64,000 nt of DNA from Acidobacteriota bacterium (GCA_021790995.1 JAJYFA010000001.1:5520-69519); one strand, 5' to 3'. Counted from the stretch's first letter, positions 29,283 to 59,496 are shown. Made by a program: numbers and translations. The notes: generated from the sequence alone by a model not told the origin.

Positions 29283-32200
29283 TCAATCGACAGTGACGGC
29301 AATCTGAGCCGTCTGTGTGACGCCTGCGGTTGAGCCGGCCGCTGTAATAGTTACGGTTCCGGTGACAGGCTGTTGTCCTGAACCGCCGCCGCTGCCGCCG
29401 CCACAGGCAGTAAAGCCGGCCGCCGTGGCCAGCAGAAGCAGTACAAGCAACAGACGCCGGAAGGCGGCAAGGCGCACAAGTCGCTTGCGGTCATATCCCC
29501 CCAGAAGCAGAATGGCTCCTGCCGGCAGCCAGCAAAGAGAGATGCCGTCGAAGCTGCGGCGCGCGTGGCGGGGAATCGGACGAAGCAGCGCCATGGTCGA
29601 GGATGACGTGATGGTTACCGTGCCCGTGAGCGCGGCGCTCGACCCGTTGAATGTGTAGGACGTGGGCGAGAAGGAGCAGGACAAGCCGGCGAGCGTCGAG
29701 GAGCAACTCATGGTGGCCGTGCCTTGATAGGCGCCTTCCGGCGTCAGGGTGAGCGAGATGCTTCCGTTCCCGCCGCTGGCCAGCGTGAGGCTATTCTGGT
29801 TTGCTGAGAGCGTAAAGTCAGGCTCTGTGACCAGAAAGACAAGGGATGTGGATGCCGCGAAGTCGGCATTGGCTGCATAAGCAGCGGTGATCGAGTCGGC
29901 TCCCGGAGACAAAGTTCCGGTGTAGGTGGCAACGCCGCCGGCGTTCAACGCGGCGCTGCCCAACTGCGTGGCGCCGCTCAGGAAGCTCACCGTTCCCGAC
30001 GGCGTAATGGTGGAGGATGAGGTTACGGTTGCGGTGAGTGTGACGTTCTGGCCTGGATTCACGGTGGCGGCAGACGCGGTGAGTACGGTTGTGGTCGGCG
30101 CGGTGGTGACGGTCAGTGTTCCCGGTGTAAGAACGAATGTATAGTTAGCCGCGGCCAGCGTGCCCGTTGTAATGCCAATGCTGTATGTTCCCGGCGCAGA
30201 GGTGGTGACCGCGGTGGTTGAGAGGACCGGCGCGCCAGTTACAACGGACTGCGGATCGCCGTTGACGAAGCCGGTGATGATATACGCGAACGCCGGATTC
30301 GCCACTCCGTAGATGCGCGAGGCGTTCTGCGCGGTGACTGCGAGAGTTGCCTTTGTCACGCTTAGGCTTGCAGTGGTGCTGGCGAGTCCGGCGGCAGAGG
30401 CCGTGAGCGTGTAGCTTCCCGTGGCGGAAAGCGTGACGCCGCTTAGGTCGAAGCTGGCTACTCCGTTCGTGCTGGACGCGGTGAGGTTATCGGTGTAGCT
30501 GTTTGGCCCGGTGATCCGCAGCGTCACGCTTGTGGAAGGAGCGAGCACCAAGGAGCCGGAGTTGTCGAGTACGTTCACCTGGACCGTGCCCAGTGTTGCG
30601 CCATAGGTCGCGGTCGAGGGCGTGCCGGAGGCAAAGCTCAACTGCGACGCTGTGGCTGCTTCCGTGATATGCATAGGAATAATCTGCCAGAGCTGCGTCT
30701 TATCCGCGGGCGTGATCCAGTCGATGCTGGTGCTGGAAGGCGCTTCCTGTTCGACTCCGCCGGCAGCGGCGGCCAGAACCAGGCCGCTCGCTTTGTTCAC
30801 CAGTGTATAGTCGCCGTTGCCGGCGGTGACGAGGTTCCACTCCTGCGAGGCCGTTCCTGCTGCGGCATCCTTCAGCGCAACGGCGCTGCCCGCGGTCGTG
30901 GTTCCGGAGTTATCGAGGACTAGCGCCGTTGTGCCCTGCGCAGCGCCGAGGTTGGCAATCTGCAGGTAGCCGTCGCCATTGCTGGTGATGGACCACTGCT
31001 GGCCCAGGGTTGCTCCACCGTCGCCGGCCGCCGTGCCCAGCGGAGTACCGGTGGCGGTGGCGAGGCCGGCCGTGCCCAGAATCTCCCCGGTCGCTACGTT
31101 GACCAGTGCATAGGCTAGCGTCGGATCGATTTTGCCGCCCAGCGCGTCGGCGCCGCTGAGAATGGCCGCATAGTTGGTTGCCGTGGAAAGTGATGTCCCC
31201 GAGGTGTCGGCATTATCGAAGAGCGTCAGGCCGTTCCACACATAGGTGCCGTCGGTACGCCCATCGCCGTTGGTAAACCCGCCGCCGTTGCTGGTTGTGT
31301 TCACACCCTCCGGATCCCAGTACTCCATGCCCATGCCCAGATTGCCCGGCAGGCCCTTCAGCACGGTGTTCAGGTCAATCAAAAATTGCCGCTGTCCGGC
31401 AACTGTGGCCGGATACCAGGGATCGTTGGAATCGAAGCCATTCTCGTAGTGTTCGCCCGCTTCGATCAGAAAGATCGGAACGCCCAAAGAATTGGCGGCG
31501 GTCGTCAGCACACTTTGCTCTACCGGCTGGTTGTTTGGATTGGAAGCCGCGGCCTGCGCCGAGGTGAGGGGGCCGTGATAGATGGGGTAGTAACTCTGGC
31601 AGACGGCGTCGAATGGAATGGAGTTGTTCTTCGCCTCAGTGAAGAAACTCGTCAGATTCCAGGCCGGCGTGACGTGAATGCAGCGAAGCGGCGGCGGAAT
31701 GGCCGGGCCAAGCGTTGTGTCCGAGGCTGCATCCAGCACCGCCTGCATTGCTTTCTGCTCTACGGCGGCGAAGTTGCTGAAGCTGGTTCCGGGTGAAGCC
31801 AGGGAGCCGAAGAAGCCCGTATCCACCTCGTTGCCGATGGTTACCATATCGACCATCACTCCCGCCGAGCGATAGGCCTCCACCTCGGCCTTCACATAGT
31901 TGTAGACATCGGTTTCGAGTTCTGAGAGTGAGTCCGAGGACCACGCTCCGGGAGTGGCCGAAGAGGAACCGCCGTCAAAGAAGAGCGTAAGCTCGACAGA
32001 CATGCCCAACTGTTTGGCGCGTTTGGCCAGGTCCAGATCGGCGTCGTCGGTCTCTGCGTAGCAGCCGTTGCCGGAGCAGGTGGCCGGCACGGCGCTGGCT
32101 CCATCCAGAGTAAGAGTTTGGTAGGGCGGTGCAGAGGTCGGGCGGATGCGGACCATATTCACGCCGTGATTTTTCAGCATCTGAAGCAAGTCCTGCGTCT

Positions 32201-32873
32201 GACCTGCATCCTGCCACCAGGGAAGATTCGCGGAGAGCCGATCGGCCTCCTGCTTTTCGAGCAGGGCATTATCCACGCCGCGGAAGAAGACGGGCCGCAG
32301 CAGCCACTGCTGGCTTTGCGTGGGCGCGGCCGAGGCCGCGGTCTGATTCAACGCGGCGCCGGCCGATGCTGAGCCGCCGGTTACATCCAGCGCCAGCCCC
32401 GTTCCCTGATTGGTCAGCGCCGCATAGCCGTTGCTGGTGGCTGTCAGCGTCCATTGCTGCGTGGCCTTTGCCGGCGCACAGGTATTTTGCACGGTTGCCG
32501 TTGCCCCGCTGCTGGTTGCACTGTCGAGGCAGAGCCCGTTGGACAGATTGCTGATGGCCCAGTTTCCGCCTGGCAGATGCGTCAGAGCCCAGCGCTGGGT
32601 AAGGCTGGTAAAGCTGCGGTCCTCAAGAACAACCGCCGCGCCGGGCGTGGTTGAGCCGCCGTCCAGATCCGCCTGCAATCCTGAAAGCTGATTGATGAGA
32701 AAGTAGGTTTCCCCGTTGATCGGGCTGGCATCCGCGGGCTCCGTGGGTTGTTGCGCGCGTGCCGCAGCGGGCAACAGAACGGCGGCCGCCATCAGCGAGC
32801 GAACTACGCAGGCAGAGAGAGGGCGCAAGAAGAGTCGCGGCGTCTGCGGTGTGGATGCATGGCGGGAAGGCAT
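29283..32873 (-). CDS. Multidomain GH53 endo-beta-1,4-galactanase with two ricin-type (CBM13-like) lectin domains, MBG/Ig-like repeats and an unusual C-terminal TM hairpin
   Basis: I trimmed the ORF to the ATG at 32873, giving signal peptide ..RLFLRPLSACVVRSLMAAAVLLPAAARAQ. Ricin-like QxW blocks are QRWAL, QQWTL, QQWLL, QQWSI and QEWNL. GH53-like catalytic blocks are HGVNMVRIR, VDMVTIGNEVDTG, FLIEAGEHY and GMGMEYWDP. An MBG-like block is RIYGVANPAFAYIITGFVNGD...GTYSIG...ANYTFVLTPGTLTV. Ig-like repeats follow. Confidence 0.75.
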   Translation of the reverse strand: MPSRHASTPQTPRLFLRPLSACVVRSLMAAAVLLPAAARAQQPTEPADASPINGETYFLINQLSGLQADLDGGSTTPGAAVVLEDRSFTSLTQRWALTHLPGGNWAISNLSNGLCLDSATSSGATATVQNTCAPAKATQQWTLTATSNGYAALTNQGTGLALDVTGGSASAGAALNQTAASAAPTQSQQWLLRPVFFRGVDNALLEKQEADRLSANLPWWQDAGQTQDLLQMLKNHGVNMVRIRPTSAPPYQTLTLDGASAVPATCSGNGCYAETDDADLDLAKRAKQLGMSVELTLFFDGGSSSATPGAWSSDSLSELETDVYNYVKAEVEAYRSAGVMVDMVTIGNEVDTGFFGSLASPGTSFSNFAAVEQKAMQAVLDAASDTTLGPAIPPPLRCIHVTPAWNLTSFFTEAKNNSIPFDAVCQSYYPIYHGPLTSAQAAASNPNNQPVEQSVLTTAANSLGVPIFLIEAGEHYENGFDSNDPWYPATVAGQRQFLIDLNTVLKGLPGNLGMGMEYWDPEGVNTTSNGGGFTNGDGRTDGTYVWNGLTLFDNADTSGTSLSTATNYAAILSGADALGGKIDPTLAYALVNVATGEILGTAGLATATGTPLGTAAGDGGATLGQQWSITSNGDGYLQIANLGAAQGTTALVLDNSGTTTAGSAVALKDAAAGTASQEWNLVTAGNGDYTLVNKASGLVLAAAAGGVEQEAPSSTSIDWITPADKTQLWQIIPMHITEAATASQLSFASGTPSTATYGATLGTVQVNVLDNSGSLVLAPSTSVTLRITGPNSYTDNLTASSTNGVASFDLSGVTLSATGSYTLTASAAGLASTTASLSVTKATLAVTAQNASRIYGVANPAFAYIITGFVNGDPQSVVTGAPVLSTTAVTTSAPGTYSIGITTGTLAAANYTFVLTPGTLTVTTAPTTTVLTASAATVNPGQNVTLTATVTSSSTITPSGTVSFLSGATQLGSAALNAGGVATYTGTLSPGADSITAAYAANADFAASTSLVFLVTEPDFTLSANQNSLTLASGGNGSISLTLTPEGAYQGTATMSCSSTLAGLSCSFSPTSYTFNGSSAALTGTVTITSSSTMALLRPIPRHARRSFDGISLCWLPAGAILLLGGYDRKRLVRLAAFRRLLLVLLLLATAAGFTACGGGSGGGSGQQPVTGTVTITAAGSTAGVTQTAQIAVTVD

Positions 32874-32995
32874 GGGATTTCCTTTGTGCGGACGATGGAT
32901 GTGCGCAGACACATTCCTCTGTTCCAGTTGCTGAACGCAACGGAAGGGGCGCATTTCTGTGCGATTGTGAGGATACGAGCGTAAGTCAGGAACCG

Positions 32996-33015
32996 CATCC
33001 GACAAAAGGCGGATT
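32996..33015. promoter_or_regulatory. Candidate operator, copy 3 of the 20-bp palindrome AATCCG(A/C)CTTTTGTCGGAT(T/G)
   Basis: catccgacaaaaggcggatt; its reverse complement aatccgccttttgtcggatg matches 44411-44430 at 18/20. It lies 123-142 nt upstream of the GH53 ATG in the GH53/TBDR divergent region. Confidence 0.55.
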
Positions 33016-33275: not shown

Positions 33276-36200
33276 GTGAAAACGAATACAGTTCGATGGA
33301 TTGCCGCACTGGTGGTGACCCTTGCTGTTTCCGTGGCCTACGACGCCTACGGCCAGAACGCGAATTCAGGAGAGATCAAGGGACTGGTGACGGATTCCTC
33401 GGGTGCGGTGATTCCGGGAGCTTCCGTTACGATCCTGGATATCGGCACAGGGATCACGACAAAGACCCAAACCAACAATGCGGGTCTATACGATGTGCCG
33501 TCGTTGCTTACCGGCCAGTACAAGATCACTTTCAGTGCCCCGGGCTTCAGGGATGAGGTGCGGAATGGCATTACGCTGCAGGTGGCTACGATTGCGGTGA
33601 ATGCCCGCCTGCAGATTGGCCAGGCCTCGCAGCAGGTGGTGGTGACGGCAGAGGTCCCCTTGCTGCAAACAGAAGATTCGGCGCAGCACCTGGATCTCGA
33701 TGCCAAGGCGGTGCAGAACGCTCCCATCGTGGGCGGCGTCTGGTACAACGAACTCACCAATGAACTGCCCGGTGTGAACGGCGGCGGTGGCCAGGATGCT
33801 TCAGGGCAGGGAATTGGCGTAAACGGCACCGAGGGTTATTCGGGCACCTTTCTGATCGATGGTTCGATTGCCCAGCAGCCTCGCGATGCCAACGCTAGCG
33901 ACAACTATCCTCCGCCCGACGCCATCGGCGAGGTGAACATGCAGACCAGCAACTTCGGCGCGCAGTACGGGAACGGCGTGGCCGCGTTCAATGTGCTCAT
34001 CAAGAGCGGCACCAACAAATTTCACGGCTCGCTCTTCGAGTTCGATCAGAACGACGCGTTCAACGCAAGGAGTTATTTTGACCGGCCCCCGCTCATCGTT
34101 GCGCCGCTACACTGGAATGAATATGGCGGAAGCGTGGGCGGCCCCATCGTCAAGGACAAGCTGTTCTTCTTTTTCACGTTCCAGAACAATCCCAATACGT
34201 CTTCGGCGGTTTATACGACGACCGTGCCCACGCAAGGACAGAATGGGACGACCAACATGAATACCGGCTGCTTCCCTGGACCGGTGAAGAATCCCAACAC
34301 CGGGACGAACTATCCAGGCAATTGCATCAACACGGCGCTTGACCCGATCGCAGTCAACATTCAGAAGTACTATCCCGCGCCTAATTTTCTGCAATCGGGC
34401 AGCAATCCTTATTTGAACAACTACACGGCAGTTGCGGGCAGTCCAACTACTTCCAGATGGTATGTAGCAAAGGTGGACTATACGCCCACGCCGAAGCATC
34501 GCCTGTCGGCATCGTATATGTATTTCCCTATCAGCCTCGATTACAACGTCGACCAGTTCTGCTCGCTGGGTTTCGATTGCACCATAGGGAACAATTACAA
34601 CGAGGACGGCCAGGTTACGGATGTGTGGACGATCAACGATTCGATGGTGAACGAAGCCCGCATCGGCGGCGTGCGCGAGGTGGATAAGTATATTCCGCCG
34701 ACCTACGGCAAGGGCTATCCAACGACCATCGGCCTGGAGCCTACCTACGGAACAGACGCCCCTGCGGATATCTTTCCCGGCATTACGGTGAACAGCGGCG
34801 GAGGCGTTGGCGGAATAGGAATCAACGGCGGCATCCATGCGGTTCTGGCCGACGGGGCGCTTGTGGAATCGGATGTCTTCACACTGATCAAGGGACGGCA
34901 CACCATCAGGATGGGCGGTGAGTTCGACAAGAGCTACCAGAACTACACCGGCTGGGGCGACGTAAGTTCCGGTAACTTTGTCTTCAGCGGCGTATCGAGC
35001 GGCGTTCCCTATGCCGATTTTCTGCTGGGCGAGGTGTACGGCTGGTACGTATACGAGTATCCGGAGACAGGAGCGCGGATGTGGAACATGGGCGCTTTTG
35101 TCCAGGACGACTTTCAAGTTATGCAGAACCTGACCCTGAACCTTGGCTTCCGCTATCAGCGTCAAGGCGGATGGGGCGAGTCGCAGAATCGATGGGGCAC
35201 TTTCAGCCCCTCGGTGGTCAACACCGGCCAGTATGCGCCGCCAGGAACTCTCGGCGCCATGGTCTACGGTGGCCAGGACGGACGCAACACCATTCAGGAC
35301 GGCGTCAACCAGTGGGTGCCCCGCATCGGCTTCTCGTGGTCGCCGGCGCCGAAGTGGGCGGTTCGCGCCAGCTACGGAATCTCCGATCAGCCTTGGTCTG
35401 TAGATCCTTATACGGCGGCCTATGGAATCGGCTTGAATCCAAACGGGAGTAAGGGGTATGGCAACTCCGCGGCGTTTCTGCTCAAGAACGGACCCGGCCC
35501 CGGAGCCGTTGCTTTTCCCACGCTGGCGAATCTATCCAACTCGCAGTACAACTATGATGATGTGAACTATTATCCTCGGAAGCGGCAGAGCGCTTACTAT
35601 CAGGAAACGCTTTTGTCGGTACAACATGAACTGCCGCTGCAGATGCTGGTAGACGCCAGCTACGTGTTCACCAAGGGAACCCACCTGGGCTTTACTCGGG
35701 ACATCAACCAGGTCCCGGAGAGCCTGCTGTCCGGATACGGGACGAAATATACGAGTTGCTACAACGATCCGAGCGCGTACCCACTGTTTTGCTCCATCGA
35801 GGGGGCGTTCTTTGACGGCTACTCGAATTACAACGCGCTGCAATTGCGGGTTGAAAAGCGCACCTCGTATGGTCTGAACTTCATGTTTAACTATGCGTGG
35901 TCCAAGAGCATGGATACGGGCACGGGTTCGGGCAACAACGCGACTGCCGACGTGTGGCAGAACGCATTCGATGTGCCGGCCAATTACAGCCTGTCCGAAC
36001 TGGACATGAGAAACTCCATCAACGGACAAGCAACCTACGAGCTACCCTTTGGCGCCGGGAAGAGGCACGTGCTGCACGGTGTCACCAACGAAGTCCTGGG
36101 CGGCTGGCGTGCAACCGGCATCTTCCAGATCCACAGCGGCATTCCTTTCACGGCAAGAACCTCGGACAATGGCACGGACAACAGCGGCTCTGAGGCAACC

Positions 36201-36569
36201 CAGGGCGGCAGCGGCTATTCGTGGCTGCCCAATGTTGTGGCGAGCCCATCAGTGTCCAGCCCGTCGGTCAACGAATGGTTCAACCCGAGCGCATTTGCCA
36301 CTCCGGCGACCGGATCCTTTGGCAACGAGCGGCGCAACATGCTTATCGGGCCCAACTGGCGCGATCTGGACCTGAGCCTGGGCAAGTCCTTTCAGTTGAT
36401 TAAGGGAATGAATCTGGAAATTCGGGCGGATTCGTTCAATGCGTTCAACCACCCGAACTTCTCGCAGCCAAACACCTCGACGGGAACGGGTGTAGTGGGA
36501 GGCGGAGTGATTACCAGCACCGCCGCCGGCGGGCGCGATATTCAGTTGGGAGGCCGCCTGACCTTCTAA
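33276..36569 (+). CDS. TonB-dependent outer-membrane receptor with N-terminal carboxypeptidase-regulatory-like domain (SusC-like role), copy 1
   Basis: 1097 aa. The RBS ggggagga lies 9 nt upstream of the GTG. Signal peptide is MKTNTVRWIAALVVTLAVSVAYDAYGQ. The CarboxypepD_reg block is GEIKGLVTDSSGAVIPGASVTILDIGTGITTKTQTNNAGLYDVPSLLTGQYKITFSAPGF. The protein ends ...LGGRLTF with a terminal Phe. Confidence 0.9.
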   Translation: MKTNTVRWIAALVVTLAVSVAYDAYGQNANSGEIKGLVTDSSGAVIPGASVTILDIGTGITTKTQTNNAGLYDVPSLLTGQYKITFSAPGFRDEVRNGITLQVATIAVNARLQIGQASQQVVVTAEVPLLQTEDSAQHLDLDAKAVQNAPIVGGVWYNELTNELPGVNGGGGQDASGQGIGVNGTEGYSGTFLIDGSIAQQPRDANASDNYPPPDAIGEVNMQTSNFGAQYGNGVAAFNVLIKSGTNKFHGSLFEFDQNDAFNARSYFDRPPLIVAPLHWNEYGGSVGGPIVKDKLFFFFTFQNNPNTSSAVYTTTVPTQGQNGTTNMNTGCFPGPVKNPNTGTNYPGNCINTALDPIAVNIQKYYPAPNFLQSGSNPYLNNYTAVAGSPTTSRWYVAKVDYTPTPKHRLSASYMYFPISLDYNVDQFCSLGFDCTIGNNYNEDGQVTDVWTINDSMVNEARIGGVREVDKYIPPTYGKGYPTTIGLEPTYGTDAPADIFPGITVNSGGGVGGIGINGGIHAVLADGALVESDVFTLIKGRHTIRMGGEFDKSYQNYTGWGDVSSGNFVFSGVSSGVPYADFLLGEVYGWYVYEYPETGARMWNMGAFVQDDFQVMQNLTLNLGFRYQRQGGWGESQNRWGTFSPSVVNTGQYAPPGTLGAMVYGGQDGRNTIQDGVNQWVPRIGFSWSPAPKWAVRASYGISDQPWSVDPYTAAYGIGLNPNGSKGYGNSAAFLLKNGPGPGAVAFPTLANLSNSQYNYDDVNYYPRKRQSAYYQETLLSVQHELPLQMLVDASYVFTKGTHLGFTRDINQVPESLLSGYGTKYTSCYNDPSAYPLFCSIEGAFFDGYSNYNALQLRVEKRTSYGLNFMFNYAWSKSMDTGTGSGNNATADVWQNAFDVPANYSLSELDMRNSINGQATYELPFGAGKRHVLHGVTNEVLGGWRATGIFQIHSGIPFTARTSDNGTDNSGSEATQGGSGYSWLPNVVASPSVSSPSVNEWFNPSAFATPATGSFGNERRNMLIGPNWRDLDLSLGKSFQLIKGMNLEIRADSFNAFNHPNFSQPNTSTGTGVVGGGVITSTAAGGRDIQLGGRLTF

Positions 36570-36588: not shown

Positions 36589-36648
36589 GCAAACCGGGAT
36601 GTGCGTGGGCGCAGGGATGTGCCCCACATCCCGGTTTGCTTCTATTTT
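36589..36648 (+). terminator. Rho-independent terminator after TBDR copy 1
   Basis: gcaaaccgggatgtg (36589-36603) pairs perfectly with cacatcccggtttgc (36625-36639), a 15-bp stem. It is followed by ttctatttt. Confidence 0.7.
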
Positions 36649-41040: not shown

Positions 41041-41042
41041 AC

Positions 41043-41687
41043 ATGGATGAGCAGAAACAAATAAAGGTGCTGATTGTCGATGACCATCCGATTATGCGCA
41101 TCGGCATTGCGGCTATCATCAATGCCCGCGCCGACATGGTAACGGTGGCTGAGGCCGGAAGCGGGGAGAGCGCCGTGGACTTGTTTGAGAAGTATCGTCC
41201 GGATATCACCCTCATGGATCTGCGCCTGCCCGGGATCAGCGGCGTTGAAACCATTCGCAGGATCCGCGCGCGGCATCCGGAGGCTTGTTTTGTGGTGCTC
41301 ACCACCTACGAGGGCGACGAGGACATTTATCAGGCGCTGGAAGCCGGGGCGCGCGCGTACGTCATCAAAGGCATGCAGCATGAGGCGCTGGTGGATGCTT
41401 TGCGCCGGGTGTATGCAGGCGGCCGCTTTCTTCCCTCGCCGGTCTCGCGCGCCCTGGCTGCGCGCACCCCGGATTCGGACCTGAGCGCACGCGAGCGGGA
41501 GGTCCTGCAACTGCTGGCGCAGGGCGAAAGCAACAAGAGGATCGCATTCCTGCTGGGCATAACGGAGGCGACCGTCAAGTGTCACGTTAGTGTGATCCTG
41601 ATGCGGCTGCAGGTGGAAGATCGCACGCAGGCCGTGGTGGCGGCTCTGCAGCGCGGACTGGTTCACCTGCCGCGCGAAGCGCACTAA
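41043..41687 (+). CDS. NarL/LuxR-family response regulator (paralog of 22285-22932)
   Basis: 214 aa. Contains IKVLIVDDHPIMRIGI, PDITLMDLRLPGISG and the HTH LSAREREVLQLLAQGESNKRIAFLLGITEATVKCHVSVILMRLQV. Confidence 0.9.
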   Translation: MDEQKQIKVLIVDDHPIMRIGIAAIINARADMVTVAEAGSGESAVDLFEKYRPDITLMDLRLPGISGVETIRRIRARHPEACFVVLTTYEGDEDIYQALEAGARAYVIKGMQHEALVDALRRVYAGGRFLPSPVSRALAARTPDSDLSAREREVLQLLAQGESNKRIAFLLGITEATVKCHVSVILMRLQVEDRTQAVVAALQRGLVHLPREAH

Positions 41688-47797: not shown

Positions 47798-48074
47798 TTG
47801 AGTAGCTCCAATCAAGCATGAAGAGACGAAATTTCAGGGCACGATACTCGCAACGACTTGCAGCGCAAAACTGCTCGATACCGTAGGCTCCACTTCCAGC
47901 GCGGTGCACGAGTCTCGGGCGCCGATATTCTGTCGATATATGTTCCGGCGGTGGTGCGTAGCAGCGAACCGCGGAGTGACAGGAGTTTTTGTGCATTCTG
48001 CCCTTTGAGATAATCGACAATTTGCGCGGCACACTACGCGAGAGGCGTGAGATCGGTGGAGAAGATTCTCGCGG

Positions 48075-50027: not shown

Positions 50028-53000
50028 TCAGAAGTTGAACTTCAGCCTGAATTGCGAGGTTCTTGCTCCCGCCATGTCGCCGCCGATCTGTCCATCGGTC
50101 AATCCGCCGACGGCCATGTTCGAAACCGGCCGGGCCCAGTAGTGGCGGTTGAATACGTTGAACATATCGGCGCGGAATTCGATATTCATACTTCTGGGCA
50201 TGCCAAAGGTTTTGACCAGGCCCATGTCTTCGCTTTCCCACGGAATCCAGCGAATATCCGCGGAGTTGCGCGGCATGTCACCGAACTGCCACGGATTGCC
50301 CTGCCCCGATGCGCCCACTCCGTTCGGATCGCGGTCCTGGAAGAGGTTCGGATCGTAGAAAGCATTGCAGTTAAAGTAGCCGGTCGCGCACGCCGAGGCA
50401 TACGTCGTTGAGTTGAAGTTGAGAGGATTCTTGAACGCGGCGTTCTTAACAGGCTGTCCTGTGACGCGATTGAAACGAACGCTGGAGTTCTTTCCCGGAA
50501 TGCCGGTGGCGCCAAAGATGCTCATGGGCTGGCCGCTCTCGTAGTGCAGAATGCCGCTGTAGCTCCAGCCTCCAATCAGCGTATCTACCAGACGCGAATC
50601 ACTGCCGAGAAACTTCTTGCCCCTGCCAATCGGCAGTTCGTAGATGTAACTCACTGCAAGGTTGTTGGGCGTATCTTCGCTGCTGACACACTTTTCTGCG
50701 CGCAGGTTTTCAGGATTCTGCACCGCGCCGCCGTTTTGCAGCGTGCTCCAGTAGGGCTGAATCACGTCGGCATCGGTGAGCGTCTTCGAGAAGGTGTACG
50801 ATGCCAGAATGTTCAGGCCGTTGCTGAATCGCTTGTCGAGTCTTGCCTCAAGCGCTTCATAGGTGGACTGTCCCAGGTTCTGCAGATAGCTGTCCATGTT
50901 GATGTAGCCAATCTGCGGGAAGGGACGCAGCGCCTGCGAGATGGGCTCGTTGATCGGCCAGGTGCAGGTGGGTGGTCCTGCCGGACAACTGAAGTTGGAG
51001 TAGGGCTCTATCGAATTGACACCGAAGCCGCCCTCGGCATTCGGCGGGTAATAGGCCCAATAATTCAACCAATCGCCTAACTGCATGTACTTATCCGGCA
51101 AGTCGTTGTAGAAATCGAGCATGGCGTGCAGATGCGTGGCGTGATTGCCCATATAGCCTAAGGTGACGGTGGTGTTCTGGCTGACCGCATACTGCGCTTC
51201 GAGAGCCCAGTTTTCCACCATAGCCGGGCGCCCGTTACTTTTCGCGATGTAGTCTGCGGAGATGCTGCTACCATCCAACTGGTTGGGATTCAGATCCGGA
51301 GTTGTCGGCAGAGAGCCGAGTCCATTGTCCAGCGGCACGCCGTCGAGCGGATCGGCGGTGAACAAGGCATTCTGAACGGTAAAACCCTGCGCTGTGCCCT
51401 GCCCATAGTCGGCATAGACCAGCGGTCCATAGTAAATGCCGGCGCTGCCGCGCAGCACGGTCTTGCTGGTGAGCACAGGTGGTTCCCACGCGAAACCGAC
51501 GCGCGGCTCGAAATCTTTCCTCCAAACCGATCCCCAGGTCTCGTTCACGCTGCCGTTGCGTCCCGGACCCTTACCGGCAAAGACCAGAGCGCCAAGAGCC
51601 TGCCCGTACGGTCCACCATTCGTTGCCGCATCGATCATGCTCGGATCCCAGATCGACGTATCGCCCAGGGCTTCGTGACGCGGCGTCTCGTAGCTCCAGC
51701 GCACGCCGTAGTTGACGTTCAAGTGCGGGTTTACCTTCCAGTTATCCCCCGCAAACAGCGCGCCATAATGCGATAGCCAGCGCGGCGCGTGCAAGTCGTT
51801 AAGGTTGGAAGCCAGACCGGTTTCGCCGATCAGAAAGGCAGCAAAGCCATTGCCATCCTCTCCCCAGAAGTCCTCGTCCGATGCGGTCTGGTTGGGCCAG
51901 AACTGGAAGCAGCCGGCATTGCCCGAGCAGGTTCCACCAATGTGGCTGACCCAGGAGTATTGGTGATACTGCGCTTCTCCGCCGAATATGAAACTGTGCG
52001 CGCCGTACTGCCAGTGGAGCACGTTATTCACCGCGACGGTGTTGTCCACATCGGTCGAATCCTCCTGTTGGCCAAAACCTCCAAAGGTGAATCCGATGAA
52101 CTGGAAGACCGGAAAGTCATTGCTGAATCCGTTGGCAATGCCGAACTGCTGATCCCAGTCCGTCCCCATCTGCGAGGCCTTCGATTTGTTGATGTTGTTG
52201 GAGCGGTTGCCGCCTACGGTAAGGGCGTTGACCAGATTTGGAGCAGGCATCCAGGTCCAGCCTGCACGCAGATAGGAACCTCTTTGGTCGATCGTTCCGC
52301 AGCAGGTCTGAATCGGCGGCGGCAGATTGGAGTTACCGCCCGTGTCGGTATTCTCTCGAAATTGCAGAAATGCCCAAACCTTGTTTTTTTCGCCAACGTT
52401 CTGGTCGAAACGTACGCTGTAGGCTGTGTTTTCGGTCGTGCCGCGGGAACCGGGACCGTTGTACACGTAGTTGTAAACGCTGCTGCCGGCGACTTCCTGT
52501 TGCGCCAGGGGCATCAGGTATTTGTTCACAAACATGCTTGCGATGCTGCTTGAACGGTTGATCGGAATCTTGTTGGTCGGCATTCCTGAAACGGCATACT
52601 TGCCCGCCGATCCGGTGACTGTCTGTCCGAAACCGGCATAACGGCAGGGTATGGTCGTATTGTCGTACTGCGGATCCATGATTTCGCCTGGGTATACCGT
52701 TTCGCCGCAGGGCGATTTGCCCAGCGGCGTCGAGCCGAGCAGCGACGAGAAATCATAGAATTGGCCATCGCTGCCCAATTCGGCAGGTGTCGGCAGAAGA
52801 CTCGTAATCGGTCCGCCATAGCTCTGATGCCACTGTTCGAAGTTGAAAAAGAAAAAGCTCTTGTTGTGGCCGTTGTAGAGAGCCGGAATGCGTATCGGGC
52901 CTCCGGCATTGGCTCCATAATCGGCCTTGGTATCCGCCGGCTTCACAAGCTGTTCTGCACGCGCGGCTCCCGTCTGCTCAAAAGCCTTTCCTTTCTGAAA

Positions 53001-53861
53001 CCAGTCGAGCGCGTCAAATGCGGCGTTTTTGTAGAACATGTACGCCGTGCCGTGATAGTCGTTGGTGCCGCCTCGGGTATTGAAGTTGGTCAAACCGCCC
53101 GTGGTGCGGCCTTCGGAGACGGGAAGGTTGGCGATGCTGATGTGAAATTCATAAATCGCCTCCATGGAGGGATTGACGATGCCAAAACTATTTGAGCCGT
53201 TTTCTTCACGGTTCGTCGTAATGCCGTCCAGCAGAAAGTCGGTACCCATCTCCTGACCGCCGGCGATTTTGATTGTGTCGGTGCCTGCCGACGACTGGCC
53301 AAAACCGGCCACGCCGGGAGCCAGGAAGGCAAGTGCCTCGGGAGAACGGAAGCCAGCCACTGACAGAGGCAGTTTGTCCACCTGTTCGGGAGAGAAATTG
53401 GCGTCGATCTCAGAGGAATCGGTTTCAAGCCCCGATTCACCTGCCACCACATTGATGGTGGTCGTCGCCGCGCCAACTGCAAGGCTGACATTGAAGCCGG
53501 TTGTGGCGCCAACCGCAATCGTCAGGTCGCGATTGACCACAGTCTTAAAGCCCGTAGCCGTTACCGTTACTTCGTACCTTCCAGGACGGACTGCCGGCAG
53601 GCTGTAATACCCACTTGCTACGCTTACGGTCGAGTAGGCTGTCCCCGTATTGACTCCAGTGATCTCGATTTTCGCGCCCGGCACCGATTTGCCTGCCGGG
53701 TCGAGTATGGTTCCCGCGAGGGCTCCGGTATCCAGTTGGGCCAATGCCGTTGTGGGGATGCCCACAAGCAGGCTCAACAATAGCGCGCACAGCCATGTGC
53801 GTGCTGTGGACCGCCGCTGCGGTTTGCAGAATGCGCGCCTGTGATTTCCAAACCGTGTCAT
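50028..53861 (-). CDS. TonB-dependent outer-membrane receptor with carboxypeptidase-regulatory-like domain, copy 2
   Basis: I trimmed the ORF to the ATG at 53861 (RBS ggaggg), giving signal region ..ARTWLCALLLSLLVGIPTTALAQ. The CarboxypepD_reg block is GALAGTILDPAGKSVPGAKIEITGVNTGTAYSTVSVASGYYSLPAVRPGRYEVTVTATGF. The protein ends ...FRLKFNF. Confidence 0.9.
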   Translation of the reverse strand: MTRFGNHRRAFCKPQRRSTARTWLCALLLSLLVGIPTTALAQLDTGALAGTILDPAGKSVPGAKIEITGVNTGTAYSTVSVASGYYSLPAVRPGRYEVTVTATGFKTVVNRDLTIAVGATTGFNVSLAVGAATTTINVVAGESGLETDSSEIDANFSPEQVDKLPLSVAGFRSPEALAFLAPGVAGFGQSSAGTDTIKIAGGQEMGTDFLLDGITTNREENGSNSFGIVNPSMEAIYEFHISIANLPVSEGRTTGGLTNFNTRGGTNDYHGTAYMFYKNAAFDALDWFQKGKAFEQTGAARAEQLVKPADTKADYGANAGGPIRIPALYNGHNKSFFFFNFEQWHQSYGGPITSLLPTPAELGSDGQFYDFSSLLGSTPLGKSPCGETVYPGEIMDPQYDNTTIPCRYAGFGQTVTGSAGKYAVSGMPTNKIPINRSSSIASMFVNKYLMPLAQQEVAGSSVYNYVYNGPGSRGTTENTAYSVRFDQNVGEKNKVWAFLQFRENTDTGGNSNLPPPIQTCCGTIDQRGSYLRAGWTWMPAPNLVNALTVGGNRSNNINKSKASQMGTDWDQQFGIANGFSNDFPVFQFIGFTFGGFGQQEDSTDVDNTVAVNNVLHWQYGAHSFIFGGEAQYHQYSWVSHIGGTCSGNAGCFQFWPNQTASDEDFWGEDGNGFAAFLIGETGLASNLNDLHAPRWLSHYGALFAGDNWKVNPHLNVNYGVRWSYETPRHEALGDTSIWDPSMIDAATNGGPYGQALGALVFAGKGPGRNGSVNETWGSVWRKDFEPRVGFAWEPPVLTSKTVLRGSAGIYYGPLVYADYGQGTAQGFTVQNALFTADPLDGVPLDNGLGSLPTTPDLNPNQLDGSSISADYIAKSNGRPAMVENWALEAQYAVSQNTTVTLGYMGNHATHLHAMLDFYNDLPDKYMQLGDWLNYWAYYPPNAEGGFGVNSIEPYSNFSCPAGPPTCTWPINEPISQALRPFPQIGYINMDSYLQNLGQSTYEALEARLDKRFSNGLNILASYTFSKTLTDADVIQPYWSTLQNGGAVQNPENLRAEKCVSSEDTPNNLAVSYIYELPIGRGKKFLGSDSRLVDTLIGGWSYSGILHYESGQPMSIFGATGIPGKNSSVRFNRVTGQPVKNAAFKNPLNFNSTTYASACATGYFNCNAFYDPNLFQDRDPNGVGASGQGNPWQFGDMPRNSADIRWIPWESEDMGLVKTFGMPRSMNIEFRADMFNVFNRHYWARPVSNMAVGGLTDGQIGGDMAGARTSQFRLKFNF

Positions 53862-54199: not shown

Positions 54200-55546
54200 T
54201 CATGGGGTATTTGCTGTCATCGAAACTCGTTCCGGATCTGCCACTGGCAGCTCCGTGCGTTTACGCACCATGTTCGCAGTGAAGCTGTCTCGCCGCGTCT
54301 GGTGCTCGCTCCGCATCTGCAGGAAATGATCGAGCGCAGCCTGTGCCTGTTTCTGGTCGTGCAGCTTGCGGAAAATCTGCGCCAATTTGTAATAGGAACT
54401 CATGGCGCGGTCGTTCGCCGGATCGGCGGCAATAGCCTGGTCGAACTCGCGGACGGCGTCTTGGAGTTCTCCCATCTTTGCCAGTCCATCGCCGAGATAG
54501 TAGTGGGCATCGCTCAGACCGGGATCCGCTTTTAGTGCCTGCCGAAGAAGCTGAACGCCCTCGGCAGGGTTCTGGTTGAGCACCAACAGGCTGCCGAGCT
54601 TATATATCGAGGAAACTGCGTAGGGATCGATATCGAGTTCCTCCTGGTAAAGCACGGCGGCCTTGTCCAGTTGCCCGACAACCCAGTATTGGTCGGCCAG
54701 CGATTCGTGGAGACCCGGCTGCCGAGGAGCCATCTTCACCGCAACCTCCAGCTCGCTGATGGCCTCTTGATTGCGATTGGCCTGCGCGTAGGCATCGGCC
54801 AGCACCTGATGCACACGCACCGAGTCGCGGTCGAGCTGGAACATCTCGGCATACGACGCATTCGCCACGCGGTAGTAGGCCCGTCCGCGTTGATAAAGAA
54901 TATCGATGTTCTTAGGGTCGAGGGCATAGGCTTTGTCGAGCGCTACAATCGCCCGCTGCGGATCGTTTTCAGCCAGCAGGCTGATGCCCAGCCACAAATA
55001 GGCGTTGGCGCCGCCCGGGTCGATCGCGGTCTCGCGCTCCAGCCGCTTCTCGGCTTCCTCGAATCGGTTCTGGCGGTAGGCGATAATACCCAGAAAGAGA
55101 TTGGTGCCGCGTAGTTGGGGCTTCAAGTTCAGGGCCTTTTCCAGGGCAGCGCGAGCCTTGTCCAGGTGGCCCGCCTGGAACAACGCGAGACCCAAGTTGA
55201 GATGGCCTTCGGCAAAGGCGGGAGTGGACCGCGTGACAGTGGTGTAGGCTTGGATTGCCGCGCTGAAATTGCCTGCCGCCATGGCTTCGCCGCCTTGTTG
55301 CATGGCTTGGCGAATGTTTTGATCCGTTGCCGCCTGCGCAAAGACCAGATGCCCTATTCCCAGAACAGCAGCGCCAAAGGCAAAGAGTAAACTCCTGCGC
55401 AGACATCTCTGCAGCGGCTCCTTTGCCTTGGGAACCTTTGAGTCGGGGTCGGACTGGATGAATGGCAGATGGATAAACTGGCTCCCGGGTGCGCTCGATT
55501 CAGCCCGACTTGCGCATGCTGGACGAAATCTGCATACCCCTATCAA
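54200..55546 (-). CDS. Secreted TPR-repeat protein (paralog of 36821-38032)
   Basis: 448-aa ORF opening with TTG. The signal-like RRSLLFAFGAAVLGIGHLVFAQA only begins around residue 50, so the true start is uncertain. TPRs run throughout, and the C-terminal helix is homologous to that of the 36821 product. Confidence 0.7.
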   Translation of the reverse strand: MIGVCRFRPACASRAESSAPGSQFIHLPFIQSDPDSKVPKAKEPLQRCLRRSLLFAFGAAVLGIGHLVFAQAATDQNIRQAMQQGGEAMAAGNFSAAIQAYTTVTRSTPAFAEGHLNLGLALFQAGHLDKARAALEKALNLKPQLRGTNLFLGIIAYRQNRFEEAEKRLERETAIDPGGANAYLWLGISLLAENDPQRAIVALDKAYALDPKNIDILYQRGRAYYRVANASYAEMFQLDRDSVRVHQVLADAYAQANRNQEAISELEVAVKMAPRQPGLHESLADQYWVVGQLDKAAVLYQEELDIDPYAVSSIYKLGSLLVLNQNPAEGVQLLRQALKADPGLSDAHYYLGDGLAKMGELQDAVREFDQAIAADPANDRAMSSYYKLAQIFRKLHDQKQAQAALDHFLQMRSEHQTRRDSFTANMVRKRTELPVADPERVSMTANTP

Positions 55547-55752: not shown

Positions 55753-57732
55753 ATGCCGACAGCGGGAAAATCCGCGCTTCGGGAACCCGAGATGCTAGGC
55801 CCGGATCGGGCAGCGCAGGTCCGTCAACATCTCGAGGATGTATTGGCGAGCCACGCGTTTGCAGGCAGTAAGCGCACCCAGGATTTTCTCCGCCTGATCG
55901 TCGGGCACGCTCTCCACAGCGAGACTGACCTTCTTCGGGAACGCATGATCGGGGCGGAGATGTTCGGCCGCCCTGTCGGCTATGACACCGGGAACGACTC
56001 CATCGTGCGCGTTCGAGCAAACGAAGTTCGAAAAAAACTTCATCAATACTATAGCGAACTGATAGGTGGGGGGCCTGCGGTTAAGATTGAGCTGCCCAGC
56101 GGCTCCTATGTCCCCAGGTTCATCTTTGAACCCGTTGAGGCGGCGCCGGCGCCGCAGCAGAACGCTGCTGTCTCCGCGCCTGTTGAGCAGCCGACACGAA
56201 CCCCCAATGCTGCCGCCGGCTTTGCTGCCTCCATACACAACCACCGGCGCGCCCTGCGCTTTGCCGCAGGTGCGGCGCTCGCTCTTATGCTGCTGGCCAC
56301 GACAGGCTACGTTATCTTCAACAGATGGCAGGGCAGCTCAAATTCTCAGACGGGGCTGCGCTCCATTGCCATCCTGCCCCTAGCGAATCTTTCCGGCGAA
56401 CCCCAGCAGGACTATTTTGCCGACGGAATTACGGAGGAGCTGATCAACGATCTTGGTCAGGTTTCAAACCTTCGCGTCATTTCACTCACGTCTTCATTGA
56501 GCTACAAGGGAACGCATAAGAATCTTCCGGAGATTGCGCGTGAGCTGAACGTGCAGGGCGTGGTCGAGGGGGGTGTCCTGCGCGATGGCAATCAGGTTCG
56601 CATCAGTGTTCAGTTGATCGACGTTAGAAAAGACAGGCCTGTCTGGGCGCACACTTACATCCGCGATCTTACCAGCGTCCTGGCGTGGCAGGGAGAGGTC
56701 GCACGCGCCATCGCCGATGAGATCAGCGTCGATGTGACTCCGCAGGAGCAGGCCCTTCTCGCCCACAAAGCCACAATCGATCCCAAGGCGCAGGATCTCT
56801 ACTTGCATGGAGTTCTCATGCGCAACAAGGATGACTGCAAGAGCGCGATCGAGTATTTTAACCGTGCCATCGAAGTTGCTCCCGGCTACGCCCAGGCGCA
56901 TTCGGCCCTTGCCACCTGTTACGGCATGCTCGGCGAGTCCGGTCGCATGACCTACGCTGATGCGCTGACACAGCAAAAGGCTGAGGCGCTCAAGGCCATC
57001 GAGCTGGATAATTCCCTGTCTGAAGCTCACGCGGAACTCGCCAATACAGCCATGACGCGCGATTGGGACTGGCAGACAGCGGACGCTGAATTTCGCAGCG
57101 CGCTCGCTCTGAACCCCAATTCGGCAACAAACCACGAGAAATACGCCTTCTACCTGGTGCGCACGGGACGTCCGAAAGAGGCTATGGCTGAGATCGAGCG
57201 TAGCGTAGATCTCGATCCGATCTCCAGCAGCACCCTCCATGCCGAGGGATTCATCTACTATTTTGCTCGCCAATACGATCGTGCCCTTGCGGTGACCCGC
57301 ACCGCCCGCGGGCTCGGGATCAACCTTGCCGACTGGAGTTTTCTTAAGGGCGATATCTACACCGAGATGGGCAGGTATTCTGAATCGATCGCGGCATTCA
57401 TCAAGTCCGGTAGCGGCCCTTATTCCCTTGGTCATCTCGGCAACGTCTACGCGCGCGCGGGCAAAAGGCACGAAGCATTGCAGGTCATTGCGCGTCTTCA
57501 GCAGGACGTTCAGAAAAACGGAGTAGGGCGATATGAGATTGCGCTGGTTTACGCGGGTTTGGGCGACAAAAAGAGTGCTTTCCAGTGGCTTGAGAATGCC
57601 TATCGCGCCCATGACGTAGGTCTCGTCTACCTTGCCGTCGACCCTTGCCTCGATCCCTTGCGCAGCGATCCGCGCTTTGACGGCCTGCTCAAGGCGGTCG
57701 GACTCCAGGCTGCGCAGGCGGCAGGCAAATGA
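55753..57732 (+). CDS. Membrane-anchored protein with winged-helix-like N-terminal module, TolB-N-like domain and C-terminal TPRs (putative one-component regulator)
   Basis: 659 aa. The N-terminal LEDVLASHAFAGSKRTQDFLRLIV......MIGAEMFGRPVGYDTGNDSIVRVRANEVRKKLHQYY...IELPSGSYVPRF is a recurrent acidobacterial regulatory module. The TM segment is ALRFAAGAALALMLLATTGYVIF. SIAILPLANLSGEPQQDYFADGITEELINDLGQVSNLRVIS is TolB_N-like. TPRs follow. Confidence 0.7.
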   Translation: MPTAGKSALREPEMLGPDRAAQVRQHLEDVLASHAFAGSKRTQDFLRLIVGHALHSETDLLRERMIGAEMFGRPVGYDTGNDSIVRVRANEVRKKLHQYYSELIGGGPAVKIELPSGSYVPRFIFEPVEAAPAPQQNAAVSAPVEQPTRTPNAAAGFAASIHNHRRALRFAAGAALALMLLATTGYVIFNRWQGSSNSQTGLRSIAILPLANLSGEPQQDYFADGITEELINDLGQVSNLRVISLTSSLSYKGTHKNLPEIARELNVQGVVEGGVLRDGNQVRISVQLIDVRKDRPVWAHTYIRDLTSVLAWQGEVARAIADEISVDVTPQEQALLAHKATIDPKAQDLYLHGVLMRNKDDCKSAIEYFNRAIEVAPGYAQAHSALATCYGMLGESGRMTYADALTQQKAEALKAIELDNSLSEAHAELANTAMTRDWDWQTADAEFRSALALNPNSATNHEKYAFYLVRTGRPKEAMAEIERSVDLDPISSSTLHAEGFIYYFARQYDRALAVTRTARGLGINLADWSFLKGDIYTEMGRYSESIAAFIKSGSGPYSLGHLGNVYARAGKRHEALQVIARLQQDVQKNGVGRYEIALVYAGLGDKKSAFQWLENAYRAHDVGLVYLAVDPCLDPLRSDPRFDGLLKAVGLQAAQAAGK

Positions 57733-58062: not shown

Positions 58063-59496
58063 TTACTGCAACTTGTAGGGCGTTTCCGGCTGGGAAACTG
58101 CATCAGGAACCTTCGGCAGCTCTGCCGGGTCGATCGCGGCCGCGCCCGCCAGTCCCACGCCCGTCACATTCGAGATGCTCAGAAGCGGCCCTTCAAGACC
58201 TGTCAGCTTCACGTTGTGAATCACCACATTCTTCATGTTCGCAAGCTCTATTCCGTGTTTGCATGATCCCGTAACGCTGGTGAGTGAGAAGCCTACCAGC
58301 GGCTTGCGCGGATGAATCTCTGTGGCCTTTACAAGCAGAGGCAGGTCGGTGACGCGAATGTTCGAGAAGTGAAACTCGCGGAAGAGCGGAATGCCCGCGT
58401 CGCCGGGAACGGGAAATTCGTCCTGCTTGCCGCTGTTCAGATTGTTGATGCGCAGGAATCCCTGCCTCGCGCCCGAGGCTTCAAAGCCATTGACCACGAT
58501 GTTCTCGACAAACGCACCGCGCCCCGGGCGGCTCTTGATGTAAATGGCGTGGCTGCGCGCGCTCAGGCACTTGCATTGCTCAATGACGACGTTGCGGATA
58601 CCCGCCGAGGTCTCACTGCCGATGCCGATGCAGGCGAAGTACCTGTCACTGAAGGTGCAGTTTGAGATGCGCACATTTTCGCACGGGCGATTGATCGTGT
58701 TCCCTTCTTCGCCCCGGCCCGACTTGAGCGAGATACAGTCGTCGCTGGTCTCGAAGGTGCAGCCGTCTATGGTGACGTTGCGGCAGGAGTCCACGTCGAT
58801 GCCATCGGCGCCGCTATGGAAGACAACATTTTTGAACGTCACATTCTCGCAGTAAACAGGATGTGTGGACCACATGCCGGTCTGGATGGTGACGCAGTCT
58901 TCGACGCGCACATTGCGGCAGTTGGTGAACTCGATCAGCGCGGGCAGTCGCATCCGGGTTGTTCGTTCCACACGGCCGCGGATGGCGTCGCTGGCAACGA
59001 TCCGGCCCGGACCCACGATGCCGATATTCTCGGCGTCCGCGGCGGAGATGAGCGCGCCGTAGCCCTTGATCCAGCGGCCTTCCCAGCGCACCTCGGCGAT
59101 TGGGTAGTCGGCCATGCTCCCTGAGCCGAGCAGGCTGGCGCCATCCTCAAGACGCAGCGTGACATTGCTGCGCAGCGCGAGTGCCCCGGTCGCATAATCG
59201 CCTGCGGGAACCACGACCTCGCCGCCGCCCAGCACCGAGCAGCGCTCGATGGCAAGTTGCAGCGCCACGGTGTCGCTGGTTTTTCCGTCGCCGGTTGCGC
59301 CCAGATCCTTCACGTTGAGCGTTACCTTTGGTCCGGCCGCCGGCTTCGCGGAGGCGTGCGCGGCTCGGGACTGCACCGGTTGCGCGAGTCCAAGACTGGC
59401 CAATCCCGCTGCAACTGGTCCCGCCGCAACAGGCGCTGCAACGGCTCCGCGCACCGCCGATTTCAGAAACTCTCTTCTGTTTGCCAATGTGCTCAT
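58063..59496 (-). CDS. Glycoside hydrolase family 28 (polygalacturonase/rhamnogalacturonase-like, right-handed beta-helix) with Tat signal
   Basis: 477 aa with Tat motif MSTLANRREFLKSAV. Contains VKDLGATGDGKTSDTVALQLAIE and the GH28 active-site region SGADGIDVDSCRNVTIDGCTFETSDDCISLKSGRG...RISNC. Confidence 0.85.
   Translation of the reverse strand: MSTLANRREFLKSAVRGAVAAPVAAGPVAAGLASLGLAQPVQSRAAHASAKPAAGPKVTLNVKDLGATGDGKTSDTVALQLAIERCSVLGGGEVVVPAGDYATGALALRSNVTLRLEDGASLLGSGSMADYPIAEVRWEGRWIKGYGALISAADAENIGIVGPGRIVASDAIRGRVERTTRMRLPALIEFTNCRNVRVEDCVTIQTGMWSTHPVYCENVTFKNVVFHSGADGIDVDSCRNVTIDGCTFETSDDCISLKSGRGEEGNTINRPCENVRISNCTFSDRYFACIGIGSETSAGIRNVVIEQCKCLSARSHAIYIKSRPGRGAFVENIVVNGFEASGARQGFLRINNLNSGKQDEFPVPGDAGIPLFREFHFSNIRVTDLPLLVKATEIHPRKPLVGFSLTSVTGSCKHGIELANMKNVVIHNVKLTGLEGPLLSISNVTGVGLAGAAAIDPAELPKVPDAVSQPETPYKLQ

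Follow-up and report, generated by a model that had tools for sequence, protein, structure and literature searches.

A SusD-less glycan-utilization locus of an Acidobacteriota bacterium in which each Oar-type TonB-dependent transporter adjoins an exported tetratricopeptide-repeat protein

Layout of the locus

We investigated a 64,000-nt stretch of DNA from an Acidobacteriota bacterium (GCA_021790995.1 JAJYFA010000001.1:5520-69519), referred to here as the window, focusing on a glycan-utilization locus at positions 29283–59496 and on two exported tetratricopeptide-repeat (TPR) proteins encoded there, each next to a TonB-dependent transporter (TBDT). Open reading frames (ORFs) and Pfam matches show that 13 genes tile the locus. 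They form two separable modules, for galactan and arabinan, that lie side by side, plus a gene for a glycoside hydrolase (GH) of family 28. The galactan module is ordered as GH53 / TBDT1-TPR1-kinase-regulator / GH2 / a 742-amino-acid (aa) protein without a family match, and the arabinan module as a membrane TPR protein (a probable regulator) / TPR2-TBDT2-GH43-GH43. The original prediction for this DNA had treated the whole region as one locus; in other genomes the galactan and arabinan sets are found apart, amid unrelated neighborhoods, and one related locus (L008) has the trio of membrane TPR protein, TPR2, and TBDT2 without any glycosidase. The predicted enzyme set of GH53, GH2, two GH43, and GH28 was confirmed in full by Pfam. 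Pfam scans also bore out the prediction of two CarboxypepD_reg-type TBDTs and no SusD, as no ORF of the locus matches a SusD family. A SusD-less, TBDT-centered glycan-utilization locus for pectic galactan and arabinan is supported.

No further TBDT was found elsewhere in the window. Pfam detected no MFS, ABC, or SSF transporter within 29283–59496, and an inner-membrane sugar transporter lies near the locus in some related loci. TPR1 of the window is 91% identical to that of Terracidiphilus sp. KM4311-13, and the host is an Acidobacteriaceae bacterium close to Terracidiphilus. Near-identical DNA is present in mine-drainage, hot-spring, and sediment metagenomes.

The two transporters and their TPR neighbors

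TBDT1 (33276–36569, + strand; PF25183, E = 1.5e-194; PF13620, E = 7e-18) and TBDT2 (50028–53861, − strand; PF25183, E = 8.5e-155, and PF13620) both have the Oar-type architecture of a CarboxypepD_reg extension and a PF25183 barrel. TBDT1 consists of a signal peptide, the N-terminal CarboxypepD_reg extension, a TonB-box-like QVVVTAE, a weak Pfam Plug match, and a large barrel (OMP_b-brl_4). TBDT2 is 28% identical to TBDT1 and has no Plug match in Pfam; its ORF reaches 53933, and the ATG at 53861 is the likely start. Neither transporter matches the NCBIfam SusC/RagA model (TIGR04056) at E ≤ 0.01.

The original prediction that each TBDT has a same-strand, ~400-aa TPR neighbor with a signal peptide was confirmed. 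TPR1 (36821–38032, + strand, starting with the ATG at 36821) is a 403-aa exported, all-helical TPR protein with a disordered acidic tail, as judged by Pfam and AlphaFold. Its N-terminus begins MSRIRK and carries a Sec/signal peptidase I (SPase-I) signal with cleavage between LLSA and QS. The TPR1 stop overlaps the start of the kinase gene by 4 bp (ATGA at 38029–38032), an overlap limited to the window and its closest relative. TPR2 (54200–55546, − strand; Pfam, AlphaFold) is an exported paralog of TPR1 and the first gene of TPR2-TBDT2-GH43-GH43. It has a signal-like segment with cleavage between LVFAQA and AT, and its mature part begins near 55330. The start of TPR2 is uncertain. There is no in-frame ATG or GTG near the signal peptide (region 55380–55546), and a well-placed AAGGAG...ATG is out of frame. 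Among canonical starts, a TTG at 55546 alone is in frame; it gives a leader of ~65 residues before the predicted cleavage site, and the stored gene call begins at an internal Met and has no signal peptide. A sequencing error, a frameshift, a long leader, or a start codon outside the canonical set could account for this anomaly. At least five TPR proteins are encoded within the window; the two TBDT neighbors had been correctly listed before, and a third, membrane-anchored TPR protein of the locus (55753–57732) had been overlooked.

BLASTP aligns TPR1 and TPR2 at 25% identity (E = 8e-22), although identity alone means little for repeat proteins. At the level of family profiles, the alignment spans 343 collinear columns from end to end (probability 99.7%, E = 1.5e-26), and common motifs lie outside the TPR consensus: LDPxNxDxL..R.Y, DSxRxxQxxAE, and PxxPGxHxEL. 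A cross-family hidden Markov model (HMM) scores ~98 bits, versus at most 55 bits for the other TPR proteins of the window. By sequence comparison, TPR1 and TPR2 are real, distant paralogs, and their predicted kinship through a DP.N.D.L..R.Y core is upheld at the profile level. Each heads a large family of ~400-aa orthologs at 55–90% identity. Mean column identity is 55–58% in both families, and many invariant polar residues lie in a central non-canonical segment.

AlphaFold models of TPR1 and TPR2 (mean predicted local distance difference test scores of 86.7 and 85.3, respectively) are all-helical solenoids of ~10 hairpins with a long C-terminal helix and a disordered acidic tail. A Foldseek search of the PDB with either model returns generic peptide-binding solenoids of the OGT, consensus-TPR, APC, and Tom70 types, with no SusD in the top 50 matches, and a profile search of PDB sequences agrees with a generic TPR solenoid. 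In Pfam, both proteins match TPR-type families only and none of the SusD-family profiles (SusD_RagB, SusD-like_2/3).

SPase-I signals ending in AQ or SQ are present in every family member examined. No conserved lipobox Cys was found in 67 members of the TPR families or in 16 further neighbors, unlike the second GH43 enzyme of the same locus (GH43b), which has a clear lipobox. The NCBIfam models of the AlgK/PgaA/BcsC type were not matched at their cutoffs (BcsC, 45.7 bits versus 858; PgaA, 28 versus 367), and the TPR proteins have no barrel domain or lipobox; matches to Tgl, PilW, BamD, and BepA are likewise far under the cutoffs. The best 150 matches of a TPR-profile search are swamped by giant multi-repeat TPR proteins and include ~35 single-stretch proteins of ~330–450 aa. 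None of the 150 is fused to a TBDT, and three of 676–1040 aa are TPR-only. A third homology search with a merged alignment gave no members beyond those already known. The TPR proteins are most likely soluble periplasmic protein-binding modules.

TBDT-TPR linkage across genomes

We scanned one genome per species for TPR1 and obtained 36 loci with an ortholog, all from Acidobacteriaceae. A TBDT1 ortholog lies directly upstream on the same strand in all 31 loci with upstream DNA. The kinase gene is directly downstream in 14 of 30 loci; four have an opposite-strand paralog there, and in 12 it is absent at that position. Where the kinase and regulator lie elsewhere, TPR1 stays beside its TBDT. Every TPR2 locus examined that had enough DNA has TBDT2 directly downstream.

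We then used the TPR-family HMM to search 80 diverse Oar-type TBDT loci from metagenomes, sampled by TBDT alignment. A family member is present in 16 of the 80, and in all 16 its gene is the immediate same-strand neighbor of the TBDT gene. Of 11 informative TBDTs with 32% or more identity to TBDT1, nine have a TPR neighbor, as do seven of ~66 more distant ones. The adjacency holds for TBDTs 26–47% identical to TBDT1, in differing neighborhoods and in both gene orders. Genes near these pairs encode GH30, GH16, GH116, GH35-like, GH31, and rhamnogalacturonase-like enzymes and an SSF transporter. Some TBDT-TPR loci are governed by cytoplasmic LacI repressors, and TBDTs without a TPR neighbor can also be flanked by Reg_prop-type or ToxR-like regulators. 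The TPR gene therefore belongs to a transporter clade as its accessory, whatever the substrate or regulator type. The pairing itself is real and general, and the linkage in other genomes on which the original prediction had staked its validity was found.

Genes for FG-GAP/UnbV_ASPIC (CRTAC1-like) proteins recur right after TBDT-TPR pairs in several loci (L053, 11747–13597; L056, 11507–13381; L077, 8144–9892; L054, 14830–16650; L005, 18216–20087). The window has three such genes, at 5894–7897, 11496–15164, and 23537–25435, and the product of 11496–15164 is fused to an N-terminal TPR array. These proteins may be a third recurrent component of such glycan loci. In L004, a multiheme cytochrome gene follows TPR1.

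A hairpin between TBDT1 and TPR1

A GC-rich hairpin followed by a T-rich tract lies at 36592–36636 (+ strand), 23 nt after the TBDT1 stop. It is terminator- or attenuator-like, with a ΔG of −33 kcal/mol, and is the only one of its kind in the window. Rfam has no family in the region, hairpin included. Of the orthologous loci, ~17 of 27 have a hairpin with a T-run at the same spot, as do 10 of 12 distant pairs with the TPR gene after the TBDT gene, and the stem sequence varies (L001, L004, L011-L019, L024, L026, L036, L039, L042, L049-L058, L077, L084, and L116). The interval between TPR2 and TBDT2 contains no terminator-like element, and a sigma-70 promoter scan of the region yielded nothing useful. 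The hairpin resembles a terminator or attenuator internal to the cluster, with the apparent role of setting the TBDT:TPR expression ratio. This arrangement suggests lower expression of a TPR gene placed after its TBDT, or a promoter of its own for that gene. Metatranscriptome contigs are tiny and uninformative on operon structure; for the window they fall in TBDT1 and the ToxR-like gene, and for L013 in the TBDT.

Other genes of the two modules and the flanks

The galactan module begins with a secreted endo-β-1,4-galactanase (29283–33005, − strand) that combines Ricin-B repeats, GH53 (Pfam E = 1.3e-40), MBG_2, and Big_3_5. Its probable start is an ATG at 32873, followed by a Sec signal, and the gene is the divergent neighbor of TBDT1 in most orthologous loci. 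Downstream of TPR1 lies a sensor histidine kinase (38029–41040, + strand) with periplasmic Reg_prop β-propellers and Y_Y_Y followed by HisKA_3 and HATPase domains in Pfam; it resembles a hybrid two-component system (HTCS) protein but has no fused receiver or DNA-binding part. The next gene encodes a NarL/LuxR-type response regulator (41043–41687, + strand; Pfam Response_reg and GerE). The GH2 enzyme (41732–44371, − strand) is of the β-galactosidase type by its Pfam GH2 domains, has a Tat-like signal (SRREVL) at its N-terminus, is likely periplasmic, and is kept across galactan-module loci.

The 742-aa protein (44429–46657, + strand, probable start at 44540) is secreted, with a Sec signal. It is present in 24 loci, where it is co-conserved with GH53, GH2, and TBDT1, and its mean column identity is 73% across seven orthologs. 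It had been predicted to be a clan GH-A enzyme; it has no Pfam or NCBIfam match, and its similarity to GH5 is faint (E = 0.006) and was not strengthened by a profile search of the PDB (E = 0.063). Its faint GH5-like NE motif region suggests a possible role in the galactan pathway as a clan GH-A glycosidase not yet classified.

In the arabinan module, a GH43 enzyme of the arabinanase or arabinofuranosidase type (46751–47815, − strand; PF04616, E = 3.9e-47) is conserved downstream of TBDT2. GH43b (48075–49772, − strand) has Ricin-B and GH43 domains in Pfam and a lipobox, AASG followed by the lipidated C, and then a Gly/Ser linker. Its gene directly follows TBDT2 in a conserved fashion, and its sequence suggests a surface-tethered arabinanase, as in the polysaccharide-utilization loci (PULs) of Bacteroidota. 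The 659-aa membrane TPR protein (55753–57732, + strand) has a cytoplasmic N-domain, one transmembrane helix, a periplasmic TolB_N-like domain (TolB_N, E = 9e-4), and TPRs. Its gene is divergent from TPR2 and has the same position in every TPR2 locus examined. The periplasmic part aligns with a Trans_reg_C protein; the N-domain has no Pfam or PDB match and resembles a winged helix by eye only. From its periplasmic module and position only, it is probably a ToxR/CadC-like one-component regulator. The GH28 enzyme (58063–59496, − strand; Pfam) is of the polygalacturonase/rhamnogalacturonase type with an N-terminal Tat-like signal (NRREFL). It belongs to neither conserved module and is missing from most orthologous loci.

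Upstream of the locus, the window encodes a second pair of Reg_prop/YYY kinase and LuxR regulator (19271–22932, + strand), followed by the FG-GAP/ASPIC protein at 23537–25435 (+ strand) and a multiheme cytochrome c fused to TPRs (26436–28742, + strand). Further upstream, 2725–9107 (− strand) is a one-strand run of secreted β-propeller genes. Its members include a Reg_prop-like protein, a YNCE-type propeller fused to a di-heme peroxidase-like C-terminus, an FG-GAP/ASPIC protein, and a protein with a hydrazine-synthase-alpha-like middle domain. Immediately after the locus is a gene for a bifunctional AroD-AroE protein (type I 3-dehydroquinase and shikimate dehydrogenase; 60023–61660, + strand).

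A proposed role for the TPR proteins

We tentatively propose, as a reading that is quite possible though short of probable, that the TPR proteins are periplasmic adaptors or scaffolds dedicated to a clade of Oar-type transporters. Judging from signal peptides and enzyme families, the secreted GH53 enzyme and the Ricin-B/GH43 lipoprotein would cut pectic galactan and arabinan outside the cell. The resulting oligosaccharides would enter via the two Oar-type TBDTs, and breakdown would be finished in the periplasm by the Tat-exported GH2 and GH28 enzymes, a GH43 enzyme, and perhaps the 742-aa protein. Periplasm-facing sensors would induce each module, with the Reg_prop/YYY kinase and its LuxR-type regulator serving one and the ToxR-like TPR protein the other. 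Each exported TPR protein would dock by protein-protein contact on the periplasmic face of its cognate TBDT, at the N-terminal extension, plug, or TonB-box region. Once docked, it would be a scaffold that receives incoming oligosaccharide and/or holds periplasmic glycosidases, an import-direction counterpart of the TPR modules on the exopolysaccharide export barrels (AlgK, PgaA, BcsC). It would be neither a SusD-like surface lid that captures glycan nor a link in a signaling chain.

This proposal draws on the strong family conservation, the end-to-end homology, the confident solenoid models, and the Sec/SPase-I signals, together with the invariant TBDT adjacency, the independence from substrate and regulator, and the precedent of PgaA. 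In PgaA, whose periplasmic TPR domain is attached to a barrel in the outer membrane, that domain both binds polysaccharide and tunes a periplasmic glycoside hydrolase/deacetylase (PMC9384988).

Several observations weigh against the adaptor proposal. About 80% of the sampled Oar-type TBDTs have no TPR neighbor, so transporters of this class do not in general require the TPR protein. The matches of the TPR proteins to AlgK/PgaA/BcsC-type models are generic and fall below the cutoffs. Two metatranscriptomes gave assembled TBDT fragments and no TPR, in RNA data that are thin, and together with the hairpin these TBDT-only fragments suggest that the TPR protein is made in smaller amounts than the transporter. 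A chaperone or a catalytic accessory would be more compatible with such a lower amount than a scaffold docked at 1:1.

A comparison of pairwise-distance matrices (mirror-tree) also gave no clear sign of special co-evolution between TBDT1 and TPR1 (r = 0.51, rho = 0.28). TPR1 distances track those of GH53, GH2, and the 742-aa protein (r = 0.86–0.92), TBDT1 distances follow those of the kinase and regulator (r = 0.73–0.77), and the kinase and regulator co-vary with each other (r = 0.94). Furthermore, TBDT1 of the window shares 81% identity with that of a clade in which TPR1 shares only 51%. Along its entire length, TBDT1 is ~80% identical to those of L034, L035, L038, and L040, and the corresponding identities of their TPR1, GH53, GH2, and 742-aa protein are 48–67%; relatives that are closer by these four proteins have a TBDT1 only 70–75% identical. 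The pattern suggests that the TBDT1 gene alone may have been replaced by recombination with the TPR adjacency kept. Exchange of a transporter without its TPR argues against a finely co-adapted interface.

Weighing of alternative explanations

The main rival to the adaptor proposal, which we consider unlikely but worth retaining, is that the TPR protein is a dedicated biogenesis factor, a sub-stoichiometric periplasmic chaperone or pilotin-like helper for folding and insertion of the large Oar-type barrel. Tgl, PilF/PilW, BamD, and BepA are TPR proteins that aid other outer-membrane proteins. Such a role would suit a generic protein-binding TPR fold, targeted to the periplasm with no lipid anchor, whose gene invariably adjoins a specific TBDT clade and is not tied to a type of substrate or regulator; the lower TPR expression implied by the hairpin, the weak TBDT1-TPR1 co-evolution, and the tolerated replacement of the TBDT without a matched change in TPR would suit it as well. 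However, most Oar-type TBDTs of the same architecture have no TPR neighbor, and the known pilotins Tgl and PilF/PilW are lipoproteins, unlike these TPR proteins, which also score far under the NCBIfam cutoffs for Tgl, PilW, BamD, and BepA. TPR2, moreover, is first in its operon, with no attenuator before TBDT2. That the TPR gene has no direct functional coupling to the transporter, and is a general envelope TPR gene carried along by descent, is very improbable indeed. TPR proteins are numerous enough for such an association, with five or more in 64 kb, TPR1 is likely a separate transcription unit, and a co-evolution signal with the TBDT was not found; but the adjacency persists at 26–47% TBDT identity in both gene orders, all 16 family members of the metagenomic sample are immediately adjacent on the same strand, and TBDT1 was apparently replaced while the adjacency was kept.

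The original prediction had offered two other roles. One was that of a SusD surrogate, a glycan-binding lid that would close over the transporter once the TPR protein had reached the cell surface. SusC and SusD form 1:1 complexes, and in loci without SusD the TPR genes do sit on the same strand as, and next to, TBDTs with a SusC-like CarboxypepD_reg extension, TPR1 being downstream of TBDT1 as susD is after susC. An unusual surface route is also conceivable, as a connection between Oar-type TBDTs and protein export has been reported (PopC; PMC6434023). The specifics are unsupported: the signals are of the Sec/SPase-I type without the lipobox that GH43b has, SusD families in Pfam are not matched, the models are plain, regular TPR solenoids with no SusD among the top 50 structural matches of either, TPR2 is upstream of its TBDT, and the hairpin suggests unequal expression rather than the equal amounts of SusC and SusD. 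We regard a surface lid as improbable. The other role, a periplasmic signaling partner that would inform the neighboring Reg_prop kinase or ToxR-like protein of transporter occupancy or of oligosaccharide in the periplasm, is disfavored to a similar degree. In the window, each TPR gene sits between a TBDT and a periplasm-sensing regulator, and TPR1, overlapping the kinase start and parted from TBDT1 by the hairpin, is probably co-transcribed with the kinase and regulator. The ToxR-like gene invariably adjoins TPR2, and TBDT1 distances follow the kinase and regulator. Against this, the kinase directly follows TPR1 in just under half of the TPR1 loci (14 of 30) and TPR1 stays with the TBDT in the rest, the ATGA overlap is rare, family members pair with TBDTs in LacI-regulated loci, and Reg_prop-type and ToxR-like regulators also occur beside TBDTs without a TPR. 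The Reg_prop/YYY sensors of Bacteroides hybrid two-component systems bind oligosaccharide directly, and by analogy the sensor here would be expected to do the same.

Comparison with known systems

Like Bacteroidota PULs, this locus has a TBDT with a CarboxypepD_reg extension beside a dedicated helical-repeat accessory, surface endo-enzymes (one a lipoprotein), periplasmic exo-enzymes, a Reg_prop/YYY sensor, and one module per glycan. Unlike them, it has no SusD and no SusC/RagA-family transporter, the rest of the window included, hence no adjacent susC/susD pair, and its accessory is a non-lipidated canonical TPR solenoid, probably periplasmic, encoded on either side of the TBDT. It also differs from the HTCS in that sensor and kinase form one protein (38029–41040) and the receiver and LuxR regulator are encoded by a separate gene (41043–41687). 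The carbohydrate-utilization (CUT) loci of Xanthomonas and Caulobacter, diderms outside Bacteroidota, are SusD-less clusters of TBDT, glycoside hydrolase, and regulator genes. The present locus shares with them the clustering of TBDT, carbohydrate-active enzymes (CAZymes), and regulator without SusD, but has no inner-membrane sugar transporter in the region and uses transporters of the Oar type. To our knowledge, no TPR partner has been described for CUT loci.

The CarboxypepD_reg extension, TonB box, and large barrel are shared with Oar of Myxococcus xanthus (PMC6434023). Oar is implicated in secretion of the protein PopC, not in glycan import, and the same paper makes no mention of a TPR partner (PMC6434023). 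In PgaA, AlgK-AlgE, BcsC, and PelB, as proposed here, a periplasmic TPR solenoid is tied to a polysaccharide-passing outer-membrane β-barrel (PMC9384988). These systems differ from ours in that they export, their TPR part is fused to the barrel or is a lipoprotein, and they bear no specific sequence relationship to the TPR proteins of this locus. We found no description of a TBDT-TPR pairing in Acidobacteria in the searchable literature, and a paper on Solibacter likewise contained nothing on the subject. The CAZyme logic and SusD-less TBDT loci are already known kinds; the transporter-locked TPR family appears to be undescribed in that literature.

A bolder generalization, which we find doubtful, would recognize three core architectures for glycan import: SusC/SusD, the TBDT-only type of CUT loci, and, as an undescribed third, a TBDT with a non-lipidated TPR partner, often followed by an FG-GAP/ASPIC protein. 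Acidobacteriota would use this third type for many polysaccharides, with the TPR protein as an obligate subunit or co-factor. In the boldest version, the Oar-type TBDT would itself export the TPR protein to the surface as a SusD analog.

Acidobacteriota rank with the most abundant bacteria of soil and peat and have very many Oar-type TBDTs. How they take up plant and microbial glycans without SusD is poorly understood, and the TPR family is a concrete candidate component. The TPR protein might also pair with the N-terminal extension of Oar-type TBDTs, itself poorly understood, and the TBDT-TPR pair, sometimes followed by ASPIC, offers a genomic marker for glycan loci in Acidobacteriota.

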